DNA of 64,000 bases from Chiloscyllium plagiosum (GCF_004010195.1 NC_057718.1:9136700-9200699), one strand, 5' to 3'. Positions 1,300-62,308 are shown, counted from the first letter of the stretch. Translations and numbers: made by a program. Notes: generated from the sequence alone by a model not told the origin.

Positions 1300-3160
1300 A
1301 TGTGGAGGTGCTGGTGTTAGACTGGGGTGGACAAAGTTAAAAATCATACAACTCCAGGTTATAGACCAACAGGTTTATTCTACTAAACAAGTATCTTGCA
1401 TCAGTGTTTACTGTGGAGAAGGACATGGAAGATATAGAATGAAGGGAAATAGATCGTGACATCTTGAAAAATGTCCATATTAAAGAAGAGGAGGTGCTGC
1501 ATGTCTTAAAAGGCAAAAAGGTGGATAAATCCCCAGGATCTGATCAGGTGTACCCTAGAACTCTGTGGAAAGCTAGGGAAGTGATGGCTGGGCCCCTTGC
1601 TGAGATATTTGTATCAACTTTACTCACAGGTGAGGTGCTGAAAGACTGGAGGTTGCCTAACGCCGTGCCACTGTTTAAGAAAGGTGGTAAAGACAAGCCA
1701 GGGAACTATAGACCAGTGAGCCTGATGTTGGTGGTGGGCAAGTTGTTGGAGGGAATCGTGAGGGTCAGGATTTACATATATTTGGAAAGGCAAGGACTGA
1801 TTAGGGATAGTCAACATGGCTTTGTGCTTGGGAAATCATGTCTCACCAATTTGAGTTTTTTGAAGTGACAAAGAGGATTGATGAGGGCAGAGCAGTAGAT
1901 GTGATCTATATGGACTTCAGTAAGGTGTTCAACAAAGTTCCTCATGGGAGACTGGTTAGCAAGGTTAGATCTGATGGAATGCGGGGAGAACTAGCCATTT
2001 TGATACAGAACTGGCTCAAAGGTAGAAGACAGAGGGTGGTGGTGGAGGGTTGTTTTTCAGACTGGAGGCCTGTGACCAGTGGTGAGCACTGGGTCCACTG
2101 TTTTTTGTCATTTATATAAATGATTTGGATGTGAACAGAGGAAGTTTAGTTCGTAAGTTTGCACATGACACCAAAATTGGAGATGTAGTGGATAGTGAAG
2201 AATTGCAACCTCAGATTGCAACAGGATCTGGACCAGATGGGCCAATGTGCTGAGGAGTGGAAGATGGAGTTTAATTCAGATAAATGTGAGGTGCTGCATT
2301 TTGGAAAAGCAAATCTTAGCAGGACTTATACACTTAATGGTAAGGTCCTGACGAGTGTTGCTGAACAGAGACCTTGGAGTGCAGGTTCATAGCTCCTTGA
2401 AAGTGGAGTCGCAGGTAGATAGGGTAGTGAAGAAGATGTTTAGTATACTTTCCTTTGTTGGTCAGAGTATTGAGTACAGGAGTTGGGAGGTCATGTTGCG
2501 GGTGTACATGACTTTGGTTAGGCCACTTTTAGAATATTGTGTGCAATTCTGGTCTCCCTACTATCAGAATGATGTTGTGAAACTTGAAAGGGTTCAGAAA
2601 AGATTAACAAGGATGTTGCCAGGATTGGAGGGTTTGAGCTATAGAGAGAAGCTGAATAGGCTGGGGCTGTTTTCTCTGGAGCTCTATAAGGTCACCCCGT
2701 AGGCTGAGGGTTGACCTTATAGAGGTTAATAAAATCTTGAGGGGTATGGATAAGGTAAACAGACAAGATCTTTTCCCTGGGGTGGGGGAGTCCAGAGCTA
2801 GAGGGCACAGGTTTCAGGTGAGAGAGGAGAGATTTAAAAGAGATCTAAGGGGCAAATCTTTCATGCAGAGGGTGGTGTGTGTATGGAATGAGCTGCCAGA
2901 GGAAGTGGTGGAGGCTGGTACAGTTACATTTAAAAGGCATCTGGATGGGAATATGAATCGGAAGGGTTTAGAGCAATATGGGCCAAGTGCTGGCAAATAG
3001 GACTAGATAAGGTTTGGATATTTGGTCGGCATGGACAAGTTGGACCGAAGGGTCTGTTTCCGTGCTGTATGTCTCTATGACTCTAATTGGAAGTACTAGC
3101 TTTTGGAGTGCTGCTCTTTCATCAGGTAACTGTGGGTTGTGTGATTTTTAACTTTGTCCA
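1300..3160 (-). mobile_element. PLE family-B terminal repeat, split by a CR1 insertion (halves ~1300-1380 and ~3086-3160)
   Basis: The motif ...ccaacaggtttat|ttggaagcactagc... is intact at 43662-43690 but is split here by the CR1. Confidence 0.65.
1381..3085 (+). mobile_element. 5'-truncated CR1 LINE (HER1-like), ORF2 RT remnant with frameshifts
   Basis: KSPGSD, VPLFKKG..PGNYRPVSL, SQHGF, VDVIYMDFSKVF, NSDKCEVLHFG, RPLLEYCVQFW and LERVQKR motifs; 3' tail ctctatgactcta. Confidence 0.95.
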
Positions 3161-3480
3161 CACAAATATAAACACACCCACACATACATATAAACAAACT
3201 ACAAACACACACAATAGAATAGAATAGAATATCCTTTGATTGTCATGTGTACTCCATTGTAGGAATAGAGTGAAAAGCTTTTTCAATGTCTGCCTTCTTA
3301 TGGCAATATCTTTGGTACAAGTACCTCCGTACAGTTCTTGGATACAACAGAGGAACAGTTGTATTACTTGTAGAGTTGAAAACTAAGTTTAAATTAGGAC
3401 ATCATTCATGGGCTGACATAACAGTAAGGTAGGAAATTTCACATAGACATTGCAGTGTAGCAGCTCAGCACAGAAACAGG

Positions 3481-4340
3481 GATGTTTGTCAATGATTGGA
3501 CAATGTTCAGCACCATTCACGACTCCTCAGATTCTGAAGCAATCAATCTTCAAATACAACAAGATTTGAACAATATCCAGGCTTGAGCTAACAACTGACA
3601 AGTAATATACATGCCACATAAATGCCAAGCTATGACCACCTCCAATAAGAGACAATCTAATCAACCTCCCTTGACATTCAATGGTGTTACCATCACTGAA
3701 TCCACCACTATCAACATCCTATGGGTTAATTGACCAGAAAGTCAACTTGACTCATCACATAAACAGTGTGGCTACGAGAGCAGGTCAGAGGCTAGGAATA
3801 CTGCGGTGAGTAATTCACCCAAAACCTGTCCACCATCTACAAGGCACAAGTCAGGAGTGTGATGGAATACTCCCCACTTACCTGGATGGGGGCAGCTCCA
3901 AAAATACTCAAGAAGCTTGACACCATCGAGGACAAAACAGCAAGCTTGATTGGCACCACGTCCACAAACATCCACTCTCTCCACCAGCAACACTCAGTAG
4001 CAGCAGTGTGTTCCAAGGTGCACAGCAGAAATTCTCCAAAGATCCTCAGTCAGCACTTTCCAAACCCACTTCCCTCTGGAAGGACAAGGTTAGATACATG
4101 GGGTCACCACCATCTGCAAGTTCCCCTCCAAGCCACTTGCTATCCTGATTTGGAAATATATCGCCGTTCCTTCACTGTCACTGGGTCAAAATCCTTGAAT
4201 TCCCTCTCTGTGGGCATTCTGGACAACCCACAGCAGGTGGACTGTCGCTGGGTCAAGAAGGCAGCTCACCAACACCTTCTCAAGGGCAACTAGGGACGGG
4301 CAATAAATAGCGATACCCATAGCCCCCAAATGAATTAATT
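3481..4340 (+). mobile_element. CR1-group LINE family B, 3' fragment
   Basis: MEYSPLTWMGAAP..LKKLDTIEDK ORF2 C-terminal motif; tail agggacgggcaataaat is shared with SINE-B copies. Confidence 0.8.
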
Positions 4341-4420
4341 TCAAAACACTTACGTAAGTATGTAAATACATACATATACATAAATACAACACATACATAA
4401 ACACACACACTTCAGTTACT

Positions 4421-5035
4421 CATCATCATCATCATCGACGGTCCCTCACCCTCACAGATGAGGATGACTCTCTCCCTCTCTCAGGGTGAGTCTGTAGATG
4501 GCTGTACAGATTGATGGGGCTACCACAGGCTCTGTTACACTTGGGGCAGCAGGTGGTGATGGGAAGGGGTGGCTGGGGCATTGGTGGGGCGGCACGCTCC
4601 CTACGCTGTTTTCTCCTGGCTTCTGCTGTCCAAGTGCTCAGCACCTTCTGGAAGCTCCTCCTCCACTTTAGACGGTCTTGGGCTGGTGATTCCCAGGTGT
4701 CTGTGAGAATGTTGCACTTCCCCAGTGAGGCCTTGAGGGTATCCCTGAAGCATTTCCTCCGTCCGTCTGGGGCTGGCCTGCCATTTCGGAGCTGGGTGTA
4801 GATCTCCTGCTTGATGAGTCTCATGTCGGTCATGGGGACGACAGGCCCAGTCCATTGCAGGCGATCAAAGTGTGGTGGGGGGGGAATCAGTGCCTCGATG
4901 CTGGGGATGTTGGCCTGGTTGAGTACGCTGGGCTTGGTGCGTCTGTCTTCCCAGTGGATTCACAGCATCTTCCAGAGGCAGCATTGGTGGAACTGCTCCA
5001 GCACCTTGAGGTGCCATTTCAGTTACTGGTGAGCA
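4421..5035 (-). mobile_element. RTE-clade LINE 3' fragment
   Basis: ORF 4432-4833 has R.KQ..Y..L..G.....G....FRDTLK and WE..AQDRLKWR, a C-terminal CPKC...HLQTH zinc-finger-like motif, and a (GAT)n tail at 4421-4436. Confidence 0.85.
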
Positions 5036-5356
5036 TTTGGCACCCAAAGATAACATCGCGAATCTAACCTGGAGAATTTCGATTTCATCCAGATTGCTAG
5101 GATAAGGGATAACTCCCCAACCCTCTCCCAAAATATAAGGAGGCAGCATTCTTAGTGAATTAAAGCAAGTTTCAATCCATTCTTAGGGCAGGAGTCTCCT
5201 GATATCACAGCTTCAGGTTGACAGTTCCAGTAAGAGAGACAACGAGGGCAATTGAGGGGCTGAACAGTCACAGTGTTGAAGCCTCATGTTCAAAGACTCT
5301 GCTTCCATCTCCATTTCAGAACAAGAGTCCCAAAGACGCATGAACCTCTCTGAGAA

Positions 5357-5509
5357 ATAATATCTCATCTCTGTTTTAAATGGCGAAGCCTTCTTTTTAA
5401 ACGCTGATTTCTAGTTGTAGGTTCTCCCATAAGAGGAAGCATTCTGTCCATATTTACCCTCTCAGGACTTCTCAGGATTTCATATGTTTTAATCAAGTCA
5501 CCACTTACT
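5357..5509 (-). repeat. Inverted duplicate A' of 7425-7577 (CR1 fragment), at the left inversion breakpoint
   Basis: 153-bp reverse-complement match; I see only one mismatch. Confidence 0.9.
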
Positions 5510-5515
5510 TGATTA

Positions 5516-5864
5516 CATTTTCTTCGGTTGAGTAGAAGAGGTCATTATCCTCCTGCCCATAAGCTCGAGGCACTTTGCCAGGGAACCTTGGGCCAGGCTG
5601 GCATGGTCTGGTGGCATGGTGTCCACTGCTGGTCCCTGGGGGAAGAGGACACTGACCTGTGACCCACCCCAGCCATCAGGAGCCCTGGATCCCTGCCCAC
5701 AAGGCTGGGTGCCCAACTCCTCATGTTAGGGGCAAATATCAGGAACTGGGTTGAGCATCACGAGATTGACGCTGCTTGTCTGGGTGCCCAACAGCCTCTT
5801 AAACATGACGGTGGTGCCAGGGATGCCAATCAATTCTGGGAAATCCCAGCAATGGGGCGACATT
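5516..5864 (-). repeat. Inverted duplicate B' of 7578-7921, at the left inversion breakpoint
   Basis: ~345-bp reverse-complement match with about 11 substitutions and one 5-bp indel by eye. ORFs 5513..5716(-) and 7721..7969(+) are near-identical. Confidence 0.9.
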
Positions 5865-5965
5865 TTGGGAATGGTGTGCAGTAAGATAGCTAGTTAATGA
5901 GGTGCATTTGGTGAGATACATTGAGGCCTTGTGATGAAAAACCACCCAAATATCTTGATGCAACA

Positions 5966-6257
5966 GGGTGGCTTCGTGGTGAGGACTGCTGCCTCACAGC
6001 ATCGAGGACACAGGTTCAATTCTGGTCTCGGGCAACTGTGTTTGTGGAGTTTGCCCATTCTCCCCGTGTCTGTGTGGGTTTCCTCCAGGTACTCCCACAG
6101 ATATGAAGATAAGGTGGATTGGCCATGGCAAATTGTCCATAGTGTTCAGGGATGTGCAGGTTAGGTGGGTTTGTCATGGGACATACAAGGGTAGGGTGGA
6201 ATGCTCTTTGAGGATGCAGACCCAATGGGCTGAATGGCCTGTACTATAGGGATTCTA
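5966..6257 (+). mobile_element. V-SINE (HE1-like), diverged
   Basis: tRNA-like head, V-domain gtggagtttgcccattctccccgtgtctg, CR1-like tail. Confidence 0.8.
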
Positions 6258-6565
6258 ATTCACGTTGAGGCATAAAACATGGTATTCAATCCTGTCTGTC
6301 TTTAACAGCAAAGGAGGTACCATTTGAAAGAGTGTGAAATGATCCGTTTTGACAGGAAGAATTACAATGAAGCATATTATCTAAATGGTGAGAGATTACA
6401 GAGCTCTGAGACGCAGAGGGATCTGAGTGTCCGACTGCATGAATCCCAGAAGGTTAGCCTGCAGGTGGAACAAGTAATCAGGAAAATGAATAGAGTGCGG
6501 TCGTATTTTTCAAGTGAAATGAATACAAATCCGGGCAGGTTATGCTTTTATTATTTATGTCATTG

Positions 6566-7259
6566 TTGTGGTTCTGTTCGCCGAGCTGGAAATTTGTGTT
6601 GCAGACGTTTCGTCCCCTGTCTAGATGACATCCTCAGTGCTTGGGAGCCTCCTGTGAAGTGCTTCTGTGATCTTTCCTCCGGCATTTGTAGTGGTTTGAA
6701 TCTGCCGCTTCCGGTTGTCAGTTCCAGCTGTCCGTTGCAGTGGTCGGTATATTGGGTCCAGATCGATGTGCTTATTGATTGAATCTGTGGATGAATGCCA
6801 TGCCTCTAGGAATTCCCTGGCTGTTCTCTGTTTGGCATGTCGTTGGTGTAGCCAACTAGCCACAAAACGACACGACCAGCTATCCTTAGTAGCCACACAC
6901 GCAGATGACAAGCAACATGAGTTCGACTGGGACAACACTCCTATTAAAGGACAAGCCAAACAGAGAACAGCCAGGGAATTCCTAGAGGCATGGCACTCAT
7001 CCACAGATTCAATCAATAAGCACATCAACCTGGACCCAATATACCGACCACTGCAGCGGACAGCTGGAACTGACAACCGAAAACGGCAGAGACAAACCAC
7101 ATAAATGCTGGAGGAAAGATCACAAAAGCGCTTCACAGGAGGCTCCCAAGCACTGAGGATGTCACCTAGACAAGGGACGAAACGTCTGCAACACAAATTC
7201 CCAGCTTGGCGAACAGAACCACAACAAGGAGCTCCAGAGCTACAAATCTTCTCCCAAAC
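6566..7259 (+). mobile_element. PLE 3' fragment (GIY-YIG endonuclease C-terminus) with inverted 5' repeat and 15-bp TSD
   Basis: HADDKQHEFDWDNT..KQRTAREFLEAWHS..SINKH matches the PLE endonuclease end. 6566-~6835 is the reverse complement of ~6953-7227. TSD ttatttatgtcattg at 6551-6565 and 7260-7274. Confidence 0.9.
7150..7189 (+). ncRNA. Minimal hammerhead ribozyme motif
   Basis: Stem I GCA/TGC, CTGAGGA, stem II GTC...GAC, GAAAC-GTC. A second copy lies on the - strand at 6601-6640. Confidence 0.7.
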
Positions 7260-12035: not shown

Positions 12036-13430
12036 GTACTTACCCGGACAGGAGGGTAATTACCATGACAGGAGGGTAATTAAATAGGCAGGATGGTAAT
12101 TACCCTGACAGGAGGGTAATTAAACAGACAGGAGGGTAATTAAACAGGCAGAGGGTAATTACCCTGACAAGGGGGTAATTAGACTGGTAGGAAGGTAATT
12201 ACATTGACAGGGCAATTAAACAGACAGGAAGGTAATTACCCTGATGGGGGTAATCAAACAGACAGGAGTGTAATTACCCTGACAGGGGAGTAGTTACCAG
12301 TCAGAAGGGTAAATAAACAGACAGGAGGGTGATTACCTGCGAATCATAATTGCTGAGGCAGGACTATTTACCCTCATGTGAGGCTTACTGGCCAAAAAGG
12401 AGGGTAGTTACCCAGACAGGAGGATAATTATCCAGTCAGGAGGGTAGTTACCCAGACAGGAGGGTAATTACCCAGTCAGGAGGATAATTACCCAGTCAGG
12501 AGGGTAGTTACCCAGACAGGAGGGTAATTACCCAGTCAGGAGGGTAGTTACCTAGACAGGAGGGTAATTACCCAGTCATGAGGGTAGTTACCCAGACAGG
12601 AGGGTAATTACTCAGTCAGGAGGGTAGTTACCTAGACAGGAGGGTAGTTACCCAGACAGGAGGGTAGTTACCCAGACAGGAGGATAATTACCCAGTCAGG
12701 AGGGTAGTTACCCAGACAGGAGGGTAGTTACCCAGACAGGAGTGTGGTTACCCAGTCAGGAGGGTAGTTACACAGTCAGGAAGGTAGTTACCCAGTCAGG
12801 AGGGTAATTACCCAGTCAGGAGGGTAGTTACCCAGACAGGAGGGTAATTACTCAGTCAGGAGGGTAGTTACCTAGACAGGAGGGTAGTTACCCAGACAGG
12901 AGGGTAGTTACCCAGACAGGAGGATAATTACCCAGTCAGGAGGGTAGTTACCCAGACAGGAGGGTAATTACCCAGTCAGGAGGGTAGTTACCTAGACAGG
13001 AGGGTAATTACCCAGTCAGGAGGGTAGTTACCTAGACAGGAGGGTAGTTACCCAGACAGGAGTGTGGTTACCCAGACAGGAGGGTAGTTACACAGTCAGG
13101 AAGGTGGTTACCCATACAGGAGGGTAGTTACCCAGTCAGGAGGGTAGTTACCTAGACAGGAGGGTAATTACCCAGTCAGGAGGGTAGTTACCCAGACAGG
13201 AGGGTAGTTACCCAGACAGGAGGGTAGTTACCCTGTCAAGAATGTAGTTACCCAGACAGGAGGGTGGTTACCCAGACAGGAGGGTAATTACCCAGACAGG
13301 AGGGTAATTACCCAGACAGGAGGGTAATTACCCAGACAGGAAGGTAGTTAAGGGTAGTTACCCAGTCTGGAAGACACTTACTCAGATAGGAGGATAATTA
13401 GCCATGTAAGAGGGTAGTTGCCCAGAACAC
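12036..13430. repeat. 20-bp minisatellite, unit ~GGAGGGTARTTACCCAG(A/T)CA
   Basis: Homogeneous core ~12398-13350 (roughly 48 units) with degenerate flanks on both sides. Confidence 0.97.
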
Positions 13431-13728: not shown

Positions 13729-14362
13729 TGGGGAGGTGATGGCCTAGTGGCATTTTGATTGGACTATTGACCCAGATAATTATCTGGGGACCCAGGTTCA
13801 AATCCTGTCACGGCAGATGGTGGAATTTGAGTTTGATAAATATCTGGAATTAGGAGTCGAATGATGACTGTGAATCCATTGTCATTAAACCCCATCTGAT
13901 TCATTAATATCCTTTAGGGAAGGAAACTGCCATCCTTACCTGGTCTGGCCTATGGGTGGCTCAGTGGTTAGCACTGGGGCCTGGAACCTGGGTTCGATTC
14001 CCGCCTCAGGTGACTGTCTGTGGAGATTGCACATTCTCCCCGTGTCTGCGTGGGTTCCCTCCCACAATCCAAAAGATGTGCAGGTTAGGTGAATTGGCCA
14101 TGCTAAATTGCCTGTAATGCTAGGTGCATTAGTCAGGAATAAATATCGGGCAGGGAATGGGTCTGGGTAGGTTACTCTTCAGAAGGGTGGTATGGACATG
14201 TTGGGCTGAAGGGTCTGTTTCCATACTGTAGGGAATCTAATCTTTTCTTAAAAACATGTGACTCCAGACCCACAGCAATGTGGTTGATTCTTAACTGCAC
14301 TTTGGGATGGGTAGTAAATTCTGGCCTAACCAGCAATGCCCTCATCCCATGAATGAATAAAG
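13729..14362 (+). mobile_element. tRNA-derived SINE family B, interrupted by a V-SINE (~13953-14245)
   Basis: Head tggcctagtgg...ggttcaaatcc; body cctttagggaaggaaactgcc...ggcct|acatgtgactccag is split by the V-SINE; tail gaatgaataaa. Confidence 0.85.
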
Positions 14363-27471: not shown

Positions 27472-28205
27472 AAATGTATTGCTGGAAAAGCGCAGCAGGT
27501 CAGGCAGCATCTAGGGAACAGGAGAATCGACGTTTCGGGCATTAGCCCTTCTTCAGGAATGAGGAAAGTTGGTCCAGCAGGCTAAGATATTCCATATTCC
27601 CTATCTTTTATCTTAGCCTGCTGGACCAACTTTCCTCATTCCTGAAGAAGGGCTAATGCCCGAAACGTCGATTCTCCTGTTCCCTNNNNNNNNNNNNNNN
27701 NNNNNNNNNNNNNNNNNNNNNNNNNNNNNNNNNNNNNNNNNNNNNNNNNNNNNNNNNNNNNNNNNNNNNNNNNNNNNNNNNNNNNNNNNNNNNNNNNNNN
27801 NNNNNNNNNNNNNNNNNNNNNNNNNNNNNNNNNNNNNNNNNNNNNNNNNNNNNNNNNNNNNNNNNNNNNNNNNNNNNNNNNNNNNNNNNNNNNNNNNNNN
27901 NNNNNNNNNNNNNNNNNNNNNNNNNNNNNNNNNNNNNNNNNNNNNNNNNNNNNNNNNNNNNNNNNNNNNNNNNNNNNNNNNNNNNNNNNNNNNNNNNNNN
28001 NNNNNNNNNNNNNNNNNNNNNNNNNNNNNNNNNNNNNNNNNNNNNNNNNNNNNNNNNNNNNNNNNNNNNNNNNNNTGCTGGTAGGGGAGGGGAGGGAAAT
28101 ATATCCTTGGTGGTGGGGTCCGTTTGGAGGTGGCGGAAATGGAGGCGGATGATGCGCTGTACATGGAGGTTAGTGGGGTGGTAGGTGAGGACCAGTGGGG
28201 TTCTG
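27472..28205. mobile_element. PLE inverted ends plus a minus-strand coding fragment across the gap
   Basis: Inverted pair at 27472-27685. 28076-28203 (-) translates to RTPLVLTYHPTNLHVQRIIRLHFRHLQTDPTTKDIFPSPP, typical of the PLE RT-endonuclease linker. Confidence 0.8.
27686..28075. other. Assembly gap (390 N)
   Basis: Run of N. Confidence 1.
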
Positions 28206-56472: not shown

Positions 56473-56972
56473 NNNNNNNNNNNNNNNNNNNNNNNNNNNN
56501 NNNNNNNNNNNNNNNNNNNNNNNNNNNNNNNNNNNNNNNNNNNNNNNNNNNNNNNNNNNNNNNNNNNNNNNNNNNNNNNNNNNNNNNNNNNNNNNNNNNN
56601 NNNNNNNNNNNNNNNNNNNNNNNNNNNNNNNNNNNNNNNNNNNNNNNNNNNNNNNNNNNNNNNNNNNNNNNNNNNNNNNNNNNNNNNNNNNNNNNNNNNN
56701 NNNNNNNNNNNNNNNNNNNNNNNNNNNNNNNNNNNNNNNNNNNNNNNNNNNNNNNNNNNNNNNNNNNNNNNNNNNNNNNNNNNNNNNNNNNNNNNNNNNN
56801 NNNNNNNNNNNNNNNNNNNNNNNNNNNNNNNNNNNNNNNNNNNNNNNNNNNNNNNNNNNNNNNNNNNNNNNNNNNNNNNNNNNNNNNNNNNNNNNNNNNN
56901 NNNNNNNNNNNNNNNNNNNNNNNNNNNNNNNNNNNNNNNNNNNNNNNNNNNNNNNNNNNNNNNNNNNNNNNN
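56473..56972. other. Assembly gap (500 N)
   Basis: Run of N, preceded by short aaccatacc tandem units. Confidence 1.
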
Positions 56973-59574
56973 TCACACATCTGTTCAGAGGCTCTTAAAC
57001 CCTCTCTGTGGCAATATCCTCTTACATCACTCCCTGCTAAAACGTGTTTGATCACACTCCGATGTAGAGCCTGAAAACATTTCAGGTGCTATATCAATGC
57101 AAGTTGATATTGTTGTCATGAGGAGCAGGGAAATGAGGTAATAAGATAACTTGTTCTAATTTCAGGTGAAATCTCAAAAGATGGTGTAACCAGAGACATT
57201 TGTCTTCAAAAAGGTATTTTTGTCAGTGTCTGTTTTCAGTCGATCAGATAGTTTTGTTTACACATTGAACATTAATGACATCATGGAAAAGACTTTGAGG
57301 ACCAACTGAGTTTGACAGTGAGAGGAAGCTTAATTAGTATCAGTGCACACAGCCATTCACCCCAGGGATCCTTTTGATTGACTCTCTTCATCCTAGTGCC
57401 ACTCGCTTCGACTTAGACCTACTCCTGACCCTCGTGTGATCACTTTTTAAAATTATCTCCAAATGTTTTAACTCAGACACCTCTCTGCTGTCTTCAGATC
57501 TGCAATAATATGCACCATTTATCAACTTTCAGCAATTCACAGCACTTCAAGACAGGTCATTTATTCAGTCATGGGATGTGGGCATCACTGGCTGGGCCAG
57601 TATTTGTTGCCCATCCCTAGTTGCCCCTCGAGAAGGTGGTGGAGAGCTGCCCTCTGGAACTGCTGCAGCCCACAATGCCGTAAGGGAGGAAGTTCCAGGA
57701 TTTTGACCCAGTGACACTGAAGGAACGGTGATATATTTCCCAAGGCAGGATAGTGAGTGACTTGAAGAGGAACTTGCAGATATGACAGTACAGCGTTGGA
57801 GCAGAATTAGACACCTTTCTTCTTCCTTCTCCCTGTAACCCTTGACCCCCCCCCCCCCCCTTACTTTTAAGAACATTTCTATCTCTGTCTTAAAGTCTCT
57901 CAATGACTTGGCCTCCACAATCTTCTGCAGCAATGCGTTCCACACATTCACCATCTTCTGGATGAAGAAATTCCTCCTTATCTCAGTTCTAAAGGGTTGT
58001 CCCTTCACTCTGAGGCTGTGCCCTTGGGTCCTAGTCTCTCCTCCTAGTTGAAACATCTTCTCCATGTCCACTCTCTCCAGGCCTCTCAGTGTTCTGTAAG
58101 TTTCAGTGAGATCCCCCCTCATCCTCCTGAACTCCATTGAGTACAGGCCCAGAGTCCTCAACCATTCCGCACATGACAAGCCCTTCATCCCTGGAATCGT
58201 TCTTATAAACCTCCTCTGAACCCTCTCCAATGTCAGCACATCCTTCTTTAGATACAGGTGCCAAAACTGCTCATAATACTCCCAATCCGGTCTGACCAGA
58301 GGGTTATACAGCCTCAGGAGTACATCCCTGTTCTTGTATTCTTGCCCTCAATCCAACATTGCATTTGCCTTCCTACATGCAACTGAACCTGAATGTTAAC
58401 CTGAAGAGAATTCTAAACAAGGCCTCCAAAATCTTTTTGAGCTTGAAATTTTCAAAGCCTTTCCACATTTAGAAAAATTGTCTATGCCTCTATTCTTCCT
58501 ACCAAAGTGCGCGACCGTAAATTTTCCCACAACGTGCTCCATCTGCCACTTCATAGCCCCCTCTCCTAGAGTGCTTCTACAACCTCCCCACGTCCTCAGC
58601 ACTGCCTACCCCTCGATCTATCTCTGTGTCATCTGCAATCTTAGCAACAATGTCCTCAGCTCCGTCGTCAAGTTGTTCATGTATAACGTGAATGGTTGTG
58701 GTCCCAACTCTGATCTCTGTGGAACCTCAGTAGTCACCGGCTACCATCCTGAGAGAGATGCCTTTATCCTTACTCTCTGCCTTCTGCCAGTCAGCCAATC
58801 CTCTATCCATGCCATTACCTTGCCCCTATAACTATGGGTTATCTTATTTAGCAGTCTCCTGTGCAGCACCTTGTCAAAGGTCTTCTGGTAATCTAAATCA
58901 ATCACATCCACTGGCTCTCCCTTGTCTAACTTGCTCATTACCTTCTCAAAGAATTCTAGCAGATTCATTAGGCATGAGCTCCCCCTGACAAAGCCATGCT
59001 GACTCCGCCCTCTTTTACCATGTGTTTCCAAATACTCTGCAGTGTTATCTTTAATAGCGGCCTCAGAAATCTTATCCACAGTTCAGGTCAGGGGAACCAA
59101 CCCGTAGTTTCCTGTCTTCTGCCTCCCTTCTTAAACAGGAGTGTCACATTAGCCATTTGCCAGTCCTCTGGGACCCTCCCACTGATTCCTGAAAGATCCC
59201 CGGTGTTGCGAAGGATGGGCCTGGCCTCGCTGCCGCGGAATGCTCCAAGTAGTTGGACCGTTCCGTATCACCTGTCCTTCGTGGAGAAGTTTATGAAGAA
59301 AAACACCTTTGACCACAAGTCCATCAGGAAGTGGTCAGCACATAGTGTCCTTGAGACCCTTCGGGAAAAGGAGAGGGCGGATCACGCCGCTGGCGTTTGC
59401 CTTCGCCGCGCAGCTCGACTTTCTTCCTACGCTGCACCCTGAAATGGCGGGACCGGCCTGTTGCTCACGCGTGAAGCTTTTGATCTTTCGGGACCACTCT
59501 CAGGGGGGCGGCGTACGCAAACGGTGTTCCGGCTGCTGCAGACCAGCCGAGTGAGAGGTTGCACTTGCCGTTTT

Positions 59575-59579
59575 AAAAA
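59575..59579 (-). terminator. Pol III terminator (T5) of the tRNA-Ala
   Basis: TTTTT on the - strand, 4 nt after the tRNA 3' end. Confidence 0.75.
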
Positions 59580-59583
59580 TAAG

Positions 59584-59656
59584 TGGAGAATGTGGGCATC
59601 GATCCCGCTACCTCTCGCATGCGAAGCAAGCGCTCTACCATTTGAGCTAATCCCCC
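59584..59656 (-). tRNA. tRNA-Ala (anticodon CGC)
   Basis: Reverse complement is GGGGGATTAGCTCAAATGGTAGAGCGCTTGCTTCGCATGCGAGAGGTAGCGGGATCGATGCCCACATTCTCCA (73 nt): cloverleaf with G3:U70, anticodon loop TT-CGC-AT, one C-A mismatch in the T stem. Confidence 0.9.
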
Positions 59657-60590
59657 CATTGACCAGCCGGCCCTGCTTTCACTACTTCCGCAGTGGATCC
59701 TGAGCACTCACGCTCCGGGATGTGCAGGAAATCGTTTCATCCGTCGGACGGCTGAGACCAAACATTGCTGATGCCAGTCTCGATGAAACAACCAACCTGT
59801 CGGAGGAGCAGCAGCGGCAGCTGGTGGACTCAGGCGAGGCGGTAGGCCACATGGACGAGGAAAGACGTGCTGAGGAGATGGGAATTGCTGATTGGAGGTC
59901 GAAATGACTTCAACCTTGGCGCAGCCACCACGAGCGTGAGGTGACGTCGCAGGGCCCCGCCTGACTGATAGAAGACTTCATTTGGTTGCAGTGAGCACAA
60001 AGTGCTTTTGTGCGTTTGTGTTGAAAAAAGCAGAGGAAGTCTGGAGAGGAATGCAGTGGTGTTTGTCGAGGTTCGTCCCGAGCAGCGCCGTGACGCGGGA
60101 CTCCATGCTCTACGGTCTGTTCCCCGGGACGCACACTGAGACGAACATCAACTGTGCCTGAAGGATCATCAACTTGGTGAAGGATGCTCTCTGGGCGGTC
60201 CAAGACCTGTTGATCTTCTAGCTGAAGGAGTTGACCCCGACTGAGTGCTGCAGACTGGCACATTCCAAGGTCCAGGACTACGTGTTGAGGGATGCGCTAA
60301 GTTTGGGGCAGCTGCCGCCGAGGCGCGATGGGGAAAGACCACTGTGTAAAGTCTGCCTGCCTAACGAAGAACAGGGGACCCATGCAGTCATTTGGGCTCT
60401 GCTGACACTTCAGCAGAAGAGCTGGATAGTAAATGTACAACTTGTATATAGGAAAAATAAATTTCGATGTCTGTGTGTAAAGCAATGTAATGTGTGCACA
60501 AACCTGGCATGACCAATTGTATAGAGATCCAAATACTTTTATGAACAAAGTATATTTTTGAAATTAAAAAAAAAATTCCTGAAAGATCCT

Positions 60591-60915
60591 GGGTGGCACA
60601 GTGGTTAGCACTGCTGCCTCACAGTGCCAGGGAGCCAGGTTCAATTCCCACCTCGGGTGAATGTCTGTGTGGCGTTTGCACATTCTCCCCGTGGCTGCGT
60701 GGGTTTCCTCCGGGTGCTCCGGTTTCCTCCCACAGTCCAAAGATGTGCAGGGTCAGGTGAATTGGCCATGCTAAATTGACTGCAGTGTTTGGTGCATTAG
60801 TCAGGGGTAAGTACAGTTTAGGGGATTGGGTCTGGGTGAGTTCCTCTTCAGAGGGTTAATGTGGACTTGTTGGGTCAAAGGGCCTGTTTCCATACTGTCA
60901 GGCATCTAATCCAAT
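60591..60915 (+). mobile_element. V-SINE inserted immediately after the Tx1 TSD
   Basis: A/B boxes, V-domain, tail. Confidence 0.9.
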
Positions 60916-62308
60916 CACCAACAATCTCCTCAGCAATCTCCTTCACAACTCCAGGATGCTGTCCATCTGATCTGGGTGATATATCCAAACTTTCAGCTTT
61001 TCAAGCACCCTCTCCTTAGTGATGGCCACTGCTCTCATCTCTGCCCCCTGACTCTCTTGAAGTTCTGGTCTGCTGCTGGTGTCTTTCACCATGAAATCTG
61101 ATGCAAAATACCTACTCAGTTGCTCTGCCATTTCTTTGTACCCCAAAACCTCGAGCCTCATTTTCCAGCACTCCAACCCCACTCTCGCCTCGCTTTTACC
61201 TTTTAAATATCAAAACAATTTCTTGCAATCTTCATATTTCATATTTCTGCCCCCATTATTGCTTTTCTGGTTCTCCTCTGCTGGTTTTTAATGGCCTCCC
61301 AGTCCTCTGGCTTTAATCTTCACCACATTGCAAGCTTTTGCTTTCATGCTGTCCCTCATCAGCCAAGGTTACCCACCCCTCAGTGTCCTTCTTTCTCCTT
61401 GGGATGAATTTCTGCTCTGCCTCCCGAATTACTTTCGGAAACTCCTGCCATTGCTGCTCCACGGTCTTCCCTGCTAGACGGCTGCCCTAGTGTTTCTAGA
61501 CAGTTGGGTTTTGAGGGTTTGGAAGATGCTGATGAAGAACCTGGATGATTTGCTGTCACCCATCTGGCGGCTGCATCTCATGTCTGCTATTATGCATCAA
61601 TGGATCAGGGAGTGAAGACTTCCAGTGATCTCTGGGATGCCATTCAAGTAGTTTACTTTGTCTTAGAAACTTAGAAAACAGTCCGCATCAAACAATCTCT
61701 GCCATCCAATCGGATTCTCAACGCCATGCTCCTATTCTCTACCCCTTGACGCCATTAGTGAATAGAAATTCCTCGAGTTCTTTCTTAAGTATATTCAGCG
61801 ACTTGGCCTCCACAGCATTATTTGGGCAAGATTTTCACAAATATCTCCCCCCACCCCCCACCACCACAAACCCCAACCCCACCCCCTTCCCGCCCCCTGC
61901 TCTGAGTGAAGAAATTTCTCCTCATCTCAGTCTTAAATGGCCCACCCGTATCCTCAAACTGTGAGCCCTGGTTCTCGAATTTTGAGAGAAGGGGAAACAT
62001 TATCCCAGCAACCAGTCAGTCAAGCCCTGTCAGAACATAGTGTGCTTCAATGATATTCCCTTCTTTTTATTCAGTGAACGTAGGCCTTGCCATCTCATTG
62101 CATTCTCATAAGACAATAGAAATATATAGAGAATATATCCAAGAGACAATCTCAGATGGTGCCAAGCTTCTTTATGTTGGAGCTCCTTCAATGTCATTGA
62201 ATGCCAAGGGGTGATGGTTGAAATTCCTCTTTGCATGGAAATGGTCATTGCTAGTCACTTGAACGTTACTTGCTTTGCAACCAATGAAGCACTTCTTTAG
62301 TGGGGCTT

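Follow-up and report, generated by a model that had tools for sequence, protein, structure and literature searches.

A tRNA-Ala gene inside a Tx1-like LINE of the shark Chiloscyllium plagiosum is most likely an assembly error

LINEs of the Tx1 clade have been described in association with multicopy small-RNA genes. Dewa is an element of this clade that lies in the spacer of tRNA-Leu genes (PMC3706591), and Keno, which uses U2, and Tx1-Mar/SINEU are presented in the cited account as target-specific elements of the same clade (PMC4494074). Fusions of a LINE with a small RNA are also on record, as in the U6/L1 and tRNA/L1 chimeras of LINE-1, which, according to the preprint that describes them, hold a non-LINE RNA gene and a LINE 3' end within one pair of TSDs, and in which the tRNA is often antisense, as at the locus studied here (10.1101/2025.02.02.635956). 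A further precedent is technical: GapCloser extends iteratively to replace N runs whose size is known approximately, and may choose wrongly in repeats (PMC3626529), and multiple graph paths and misassemblies produced by gap fillers are mentioned in the Figbird preprint (10.1101/2021.11.24.469861). In a literature search with subscription journals, Repbase and bioRxiv supplements outside its scope, we found no LINE carrying genomic tRNA-array units and no shark tRNA-Tyr/Ala arrays.

In this work, we have analysed a stretch of 64,000 nucleotides of C. plagiosum DNA (GCF_004010195.1 NC_057718.1:9136700-9200699; the window), in which a first-pass annotation had reported a single insertion, bracketed by a 15-bp TSD, that reads LINE ORF2 piece, 646-bp CpG-rich cassette with an antisense tRNA-Ala, LINE 3' end and poly(A), and had taken it to point to template switching or capture from a tRNA tandem array. 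Our results show that all of these parts are present as assembly text, and the observation itself is confirmed at that level, while the presence of the structure in the animal's DNA is doubtful. Of the first-pass interpretation, the tandem-array donor and the displaced zinc knuckle hold, and neither in vivo capture here nor a vehicle dispersing Pol III genes is supported. We propose, with a probability of about 85%, that a gap-closing walk went astray through one real array/LINE junction and in this way filled scaffold gaps inside ordinary LINE copies; the tRNA gene inside the LINE is most likely an assembly error and not a new gene-carrying transposon.

The TSD is an exact 15/15 match between 59185..59199 on the left and 60575..60589 on the right (both on the plus strand, as are the parts that they enclose). 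It encloses a Tx1-like ORF2 piece at 59200..59383, which corresponds to positions 4268-4451 of L048, a near-full-length ordinary LINE copy that we used as position reference; the piece of tRNA array at 59384..60029; the decayed C-terminal end of the LINE ORF2 at 60030..60349 (reference position 4679 onward), with two in-frame stops and a 1-bp deletion; and the LINE 3' UTR with poly(A) at 60350..60574. When aligned, the flanking LINE pieces 59197-59383 and 60030-60573 match 4265-4451 and 4679-5215 of L048. The replaced segment, which the annotation had placed at the C-terminal zinc knuckle, thus measures 227 bp, and it overlaps the Pfam domain zf-RVT of ORF2 (E 8e-9), as had been expected; six ordinary LINE copies have 209-233 bp where the window has the array piece. 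The host sequence at 57900..59184 (minus strand, by translation) is a decayed LINE ORF2, which we take to be CR1-like from its RT motifs. The reported insertion into such a host stands as far as the TSD is concerned and has to be amended on the right side, where an abundant element, presumably a SINE from its motifs (60590..60917, plus strand; 30 BLAST matches among the fetched loci and the window), follows directly after the TSD and the host LINE resumes only at 60918.

Within the cassette, ARAGORN and Rfam place a tRNA-Ala gene with anticodon CGC on the minus strand at 59584..59656, with a score of 47.4 bits for RF00005 (gathering score 29) and two non-standard T-stem pairs marked. A T5 run at 59575..59579 (minus strand), 4 nt past the tRNA 3' end, resembles a Pol III terminator in sequence and may act as one. 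The gene keeps 373 bp of upstream and 200 bp of downstream flank in the 646-bp piece, in agreement with the genomic flanks reported for it, and the CpG observed/expected ratio is 0.92 in the cassette versus 0.30 in the window. Elsewhere in the window, a second ARAGORN call with a TTA (stop) anticodon at 13937-14014, below the Rfam gathering threshold, is probably the head of a SINE; a 20-bp minisatellite occupies 12036-13350 with 66 copies, and N gaps lie at 27686-28075 (390 bp) and 56473-56972 (500 bp).

The LINE is one that we take, by its architecture, to belong to the Tx1 clade. Pfam identifies zf-CCHC, RBD_ZCCHC3, Exo_endo_phos, RVT_1 and zf-RVT on the sister copies L036 and L048, so that ORF1 carries ZCCHC3-type RNA-binding domains and a CCHC knuckle and ORF2 an APE endonuclease, an RT and zf-RVT; two ORFs with the domains expected of the clade are thus present, together with a poly(A) tail and a TSD. 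A homologue search with the RT gave 1018 proteins, the best named ones being from a ray (77%) and a newt (50%), with no homologue named Tx1 among the 120 listed; the Atlas domain result for the RT was RVT_1 only, and a search with the ORF2 C-terminus found no homologue among longer proteins at 1e-20. The element is dispersed, with 5232 first-look candidates in the genome. A Dewa-like specificity for tRNA arrays was not seen, as the copies examined are flanked by unrelated repeats or by the same LINE, and no LINE sequence was present in the pure array stretch of L044, the only such stretch examined. Many long copies show non-colinear LINE-LINE joins, and breaks in the LINE, or insertions of it, recur at position 509-528 of its own ORF1 (L036:3184-3580 and 8447, L038:6828-7010, L045:7509, L035:4567); both features could reflect self-targeting or further fill errors. 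At L031:7981-8839 a second ordinary 5'-truncated copy stands right behind the poly(A) of the first, and a 13-bp repeat brackets the second.

The proposal that the donor is a tandem tRNA array was borne out, although the cassette forms no natural unit but has been cut at arbitrary points from a larger one, a tandem unit of 1.25-1.27 kb. The remaining 624 bp of the latter carry a tRNA-Tyr(GTA) that has an intron and shares its strand with the tRNA-Ala. A diverged pure array, 88-89% like that of the window and with at least four units, was found on contig C98128 (L044) and ends in N, while units of the 93-100% type were seen only within LINE copies among the matches listed. In L044 the array occupies oriented positions 2443-6953, is 88-93% like the window unit and runs into a 3-kb N gap, and its tRNA-Ala has a 9-bp deletion in three units. 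The anticodon CGC is present in four junction-adjacent tRNA-Ala units (window, L032, L033 and L038) and TGC in the other ARAGORN calls; CGC could be a genuine variant within the array or belong to a mosaic. Older traces of the unit also exist. L046:4389-5014 and L047:4941-5119 hold old single relics, 72-77% identical, and diverged array pieces (86-96%) of about 190-200 bp occur at L055:1172-1378, L056 (minus, oriented 1180-1367) and L057:1029-1212, starting 27-35 bp before the A6 tract and reaching the tRNA-Tyr terminator region; the L055 piece has a 16-bp direct repeat and those of L056 and L057 lie directly 5' of a SINE, and all three have the look of genuine old captures in which a short transcript or fragment of the array was taken up. 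At L045:5483-7509 an 88%-identical array piece ends 36 bp before the A6 tract and is joined to LINE position 3847, a second, different array/LINE junction that is possibly a real older chimera.

Is the window insertion a member of a mobile family? The first-pass annotation had named shared junctions as the mark of one, and this held for one side only. The array/LINE 3' junction has 14 full-length matches on 9 contigs (best 40 of 550 candidates scored), and the 5' junction of the window has one among 40 scored, with a clear score drop after 14 and after 1, respectively; other search counts given here are lower bounds from 40 scored per search. For comparison, 13 sister loci and four further array-related loci were fetched. 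The array pieces of the 14 loci range from 82 bp to 3.1 kb, and in all 12 gap-free loci the piece adjoins LINE, at a LINE position that differs from locus to locus (between 509 and 4451; in L038 the LINE is inverted). None of these 12 is truncated inside the array with a TSD of its own, a result that speaks against the suggested non-autonomous vehicle dispersing Pol III genes. Four LINE 3' UTR types follow the one junction, with a single type in 10 of the 14 loci and, in the window, a type unlike that of the other 13; types A and B are about equally common by a rough measure (969 and 1002 first-look candidates). Between copies, overlapping 5' LINE parts are 89-97% alike and the adjoining array 98-100%. 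No single master sequence therefore runs along the copies, as seen from their UTR types, mosaics and differing 5' parts.

Three observations favour mis-assembly over in vivo capture at the window locus, namely the matching of lengths, the adjacency of N gaps and an unequal mutation load. If gaps were filled, the length of the fill should track that of the missing LINE, and it does: replacing length (array plus N) and missing LINE are correlated with Spearman 0.94 and Pearson 0.93 (n=13, permutation p 1e-5), 12 of 13 loci lie within 450 bp of the missing length (p 5e-6), and the rank order is perfect in the 10 loci that exclude the window and two N loci. The missing and replacing lengths, in bp, are 227/646 for the window and 2089/2397, 2004/2258, 1734/1866, 1383/1072, 4343/3103, 882/817, 2319/2600, 689/456, 591/340, 332/211, 3183/3511 (L040, N plus array) and 527/278 for the others, where the missing lengths count a 174-bp segment absent from L048. 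The test covers 13 of the 14 loci, L038 being left out for its inverted 5' part; treated by hand as a twin-priming inversion, it fits too (about 720 missing, 496 present). N runs beside partly filled cases, also expected of gap filling, are found in L040 and L043 (2 of 14), where a run of 3142 or 196 stands directly 5' of the array piece. Gaps left unfilled in a plain LINE copy, N288 for 455 (-167) and N366 for 552 (-186), have size errors that resemble many of the filled ones.

The mutation load changes at the junction. Over the 14 loci, private substitutions number 2 in 3893 in the last 300 bp of array versus 73 in 4124 in the first 300 bp of LINE (Fisher p 6e-19; 19 CpGs in the array versus 22 in the LINE), so the even load of a retroposon family is not seen, although many of the 73, of which only 14 are CpG-type, may be subfamily differences instead of age and may inflate the LINE count. 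In the window there are 0 private changes in 300 array positions versus 9 in 299 of LINE, 5 of them CpG-type. When the window's LINE pieces were compared with six copies, five of them picked by likeness to the window, the 5' piece had no private change in its 184 bp and the 3' piece 11 in 321; 6 of the 11 are CpG-type, and about 75 bases precede the first. About 900 bases of the window look ageless next to the decayed LINE end. We suspect that the array piece at 59384..60029 is a wrong gap fill, and the LINE piece at 59200..59383 is possibly itself in part a consensus-like fill. The terminal array units are mosaics of haplotypes: there are two within 200 bp of the junction and up to six farther out, 43 of 50 minor alleles are found again in units farther inside the array, and, with cassette columns 195-250 excluded, all four gametes occur at 381 of 666 site pairs, in violation of the four-gamete rule.

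We hypothesize that the window locus would be an ordinary old 5'-truncated Tx1-like LINE insertion; its TSD and its 3' end would be real, and a scaffold gap would have taken up its interior. The gap closer would have extended leftward from the 3' side, branched at LINE position 4679 into the tRNA-Tyr/tRNA-Ala array, and passed from one array variant to another until the walk had covered about the estimated size of the gap, and it would then have been joined bluntly to the left-hand extension; we infer this behaviour of the assembler from its products, and the true donor junction and its place likewise. The branch would stem from a LINE 3' fragment of about 545 bp that truly abuts the A6 tract of an array spacer somewhere in the genome, and the fills would share their branch point because this one array/LINE junction really exists. 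As the simplest donor, we propose a 5'-truncated LINE, about 545 bp long, that went into that A6 tract. The true junction may be, by analogy with known Tx1-clade elements, an ordinary LINE insertion into an array spacer. The right junction expected at such a donor, from LINE poly(A) to array, was not found among 40 scored of 46 candidates, and the extra matches from this search (L055-L057) are uninterrupted array pieces. The true donor array is probably collapsed or missing from the assembly, which comprises 3.56 Gb in 101,977 contigs with N gaps.

Several findings count against a gap-fill artefact. Of all the ratios, that of the window copy (646 for 227) is the poorest; L035 misses by -1240, about one array unit; and the 12 blunt joins have no leftover N. 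Three loci depart from the shared junction, L043 at LINE base 5 and both L033 and L039 at base 16, so that a gap-closing walk would have to put up with mismatches. The presence of one UTR type in 10 of 14 loci, despite the apparent parity of types A and B, fits a biological master, and the identical array base at which L033 and L035 start is what the 5' end of an RNA would give. The small CpG-type share (14 of 73) and the older diverged array captures (L055-L057, L045) also weigh on this side, and why one junction should win over thousands of ordinary LINE paths is unexplained by gap filling.

Of the biological alternatives, the one that survives best, although we consider it improbable, is a real and recurrent double template switch, from LINE RNA to a co-packaged antisense array/LINE transcript and back to LINE RNA. 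The crossing would occur by homology and the jump back, after up to about 3 kb of tRNA array had been copied, without it; every event would bring complete Pol III gene units to a site that lacked them. A shark LINE would in this improbable case swap its interior for a length-matched antisense tRNA-Tyr/tRNA-Ala array and spread intact Pol III units to at least 14 sites, the dispersed units keeping their flanks and terminators and some showing a TGC-to-CGC anticodon change. Such switching predicts different UTR types behind a fixed homologous junction, and it would agree with the many non-colinear joins of the LINE family, with the common array start of two loci, with the existence of old array captures and with the mammalian LINE-1/tRNA chimeras, though these are described as 5' tRNA halves (10.1101/2025.02.02.635956). 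In its favour, too, a search anchored at the LINE 5' ends found, in 6 of 13 loci, TSDs of 8-17 bp that enclose LINE, array and LINE together, but such TSDs would be no less expected if the interior of an ordinary copy had been filled; a TSD search directly around the array pieces gave nothing beyond chance. Moreover, switching gives no reason for the length match, for the return to LINE in 12 of 12 cases or for N gaps sized like the missing LINE, and it leaves unaccounted for a mutation-free array next to a LINE end that is decayed and holds CpG changes and stops. If it were true, it would amount to a new way in which entire tRNA genes are dispersed, and the LINE would show a length-conserving recombination for which there is no explanation.

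Still less probable is a recent replacement at the DNA level, in which double-strand breaks in old LINEs would be repaired by one-sided invasion of a donor with an array/LINE 3' end, from which array DNA would be copied, and by non-homologous rejoining. This would explain why a young array stands in old LINEs with a 3' junction that is always the same, and why private UTRs and TSDs are retained. It needs, however, 14 independent events from one donor without microhomology, deletions of up to 4.3 kb length-matched by new synthesis and a different mosaic of donor haplotypes every time, and it leaves the two N-adjacent cases unexplained. At the 5' joins we found microhomology of 0-2 bp, with a mean of about 0.6 versus about 0.7 by chance (three rows of the table completed by eye), and no extra bases; splicing or microhomology at these chance-level joins was rejected. 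A non-autonomous master, made of array piece and LINE 3' end and mobilised in trans as a family, is the least credible of all, since the 14 dispersed loci with a common 3' junction, the 5' lengths that at first look vary like 5' truncation and the one UTR type in 10 of 14 loci are set against the lack of any gap-free copy stopping in the array at a TSD, LINE 5' parts less alike than the adjoining array, four UTR types and mosaic terminal units.

What would follow from a gap-fill artefact, the reading we favour? The biology would be ordinary, and the assembly would contain false LINE/tRNA chimeras that mimic a 5'-truncated retroposon family; among the dispersed tRNA-Ala/Tyr genes annotated in it there would be phantoms, copies of an array that is itself unassembled. 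The tests of length match and mutation asymmetry offer a cheap screen for such chimeras.

How does this locus compare with the described systems? As with Dewa, Keno and Tx1-Mar (PMC3706591, PMC4494074), a Tx1-like LINE stands beside a multicopy small-RNA gene array; unlike those elements as they are presented there, the window LINE is dispersed and not array-specific, and the array lies inside the LINE and not the LINE inside the array. In the LINE-1 chimeras the partner is, in that preprint's description, a processed RNA or a tRNA half at the 5' end, whereas in the window it is a genomic array with spacers, internal to the LINE and with one junction at 14 loci (10.1101/2025.02.02.635956). The signature of the window, with its fixed branch point, length-matched foreign fill and blunt join, is not described in the gap-closer accounts cited here. 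These accounts nevertheless come close to it in their other features, as short-read gap closers (PMC3626529; Figbird, 10.1101/2021.11.24.469861; DENTIST, 10.1101/2021.02.26.432990) deal, like the process proposed here, with gaps in repeats, gap sizes that are approximate, iterative extension and wrong paths.
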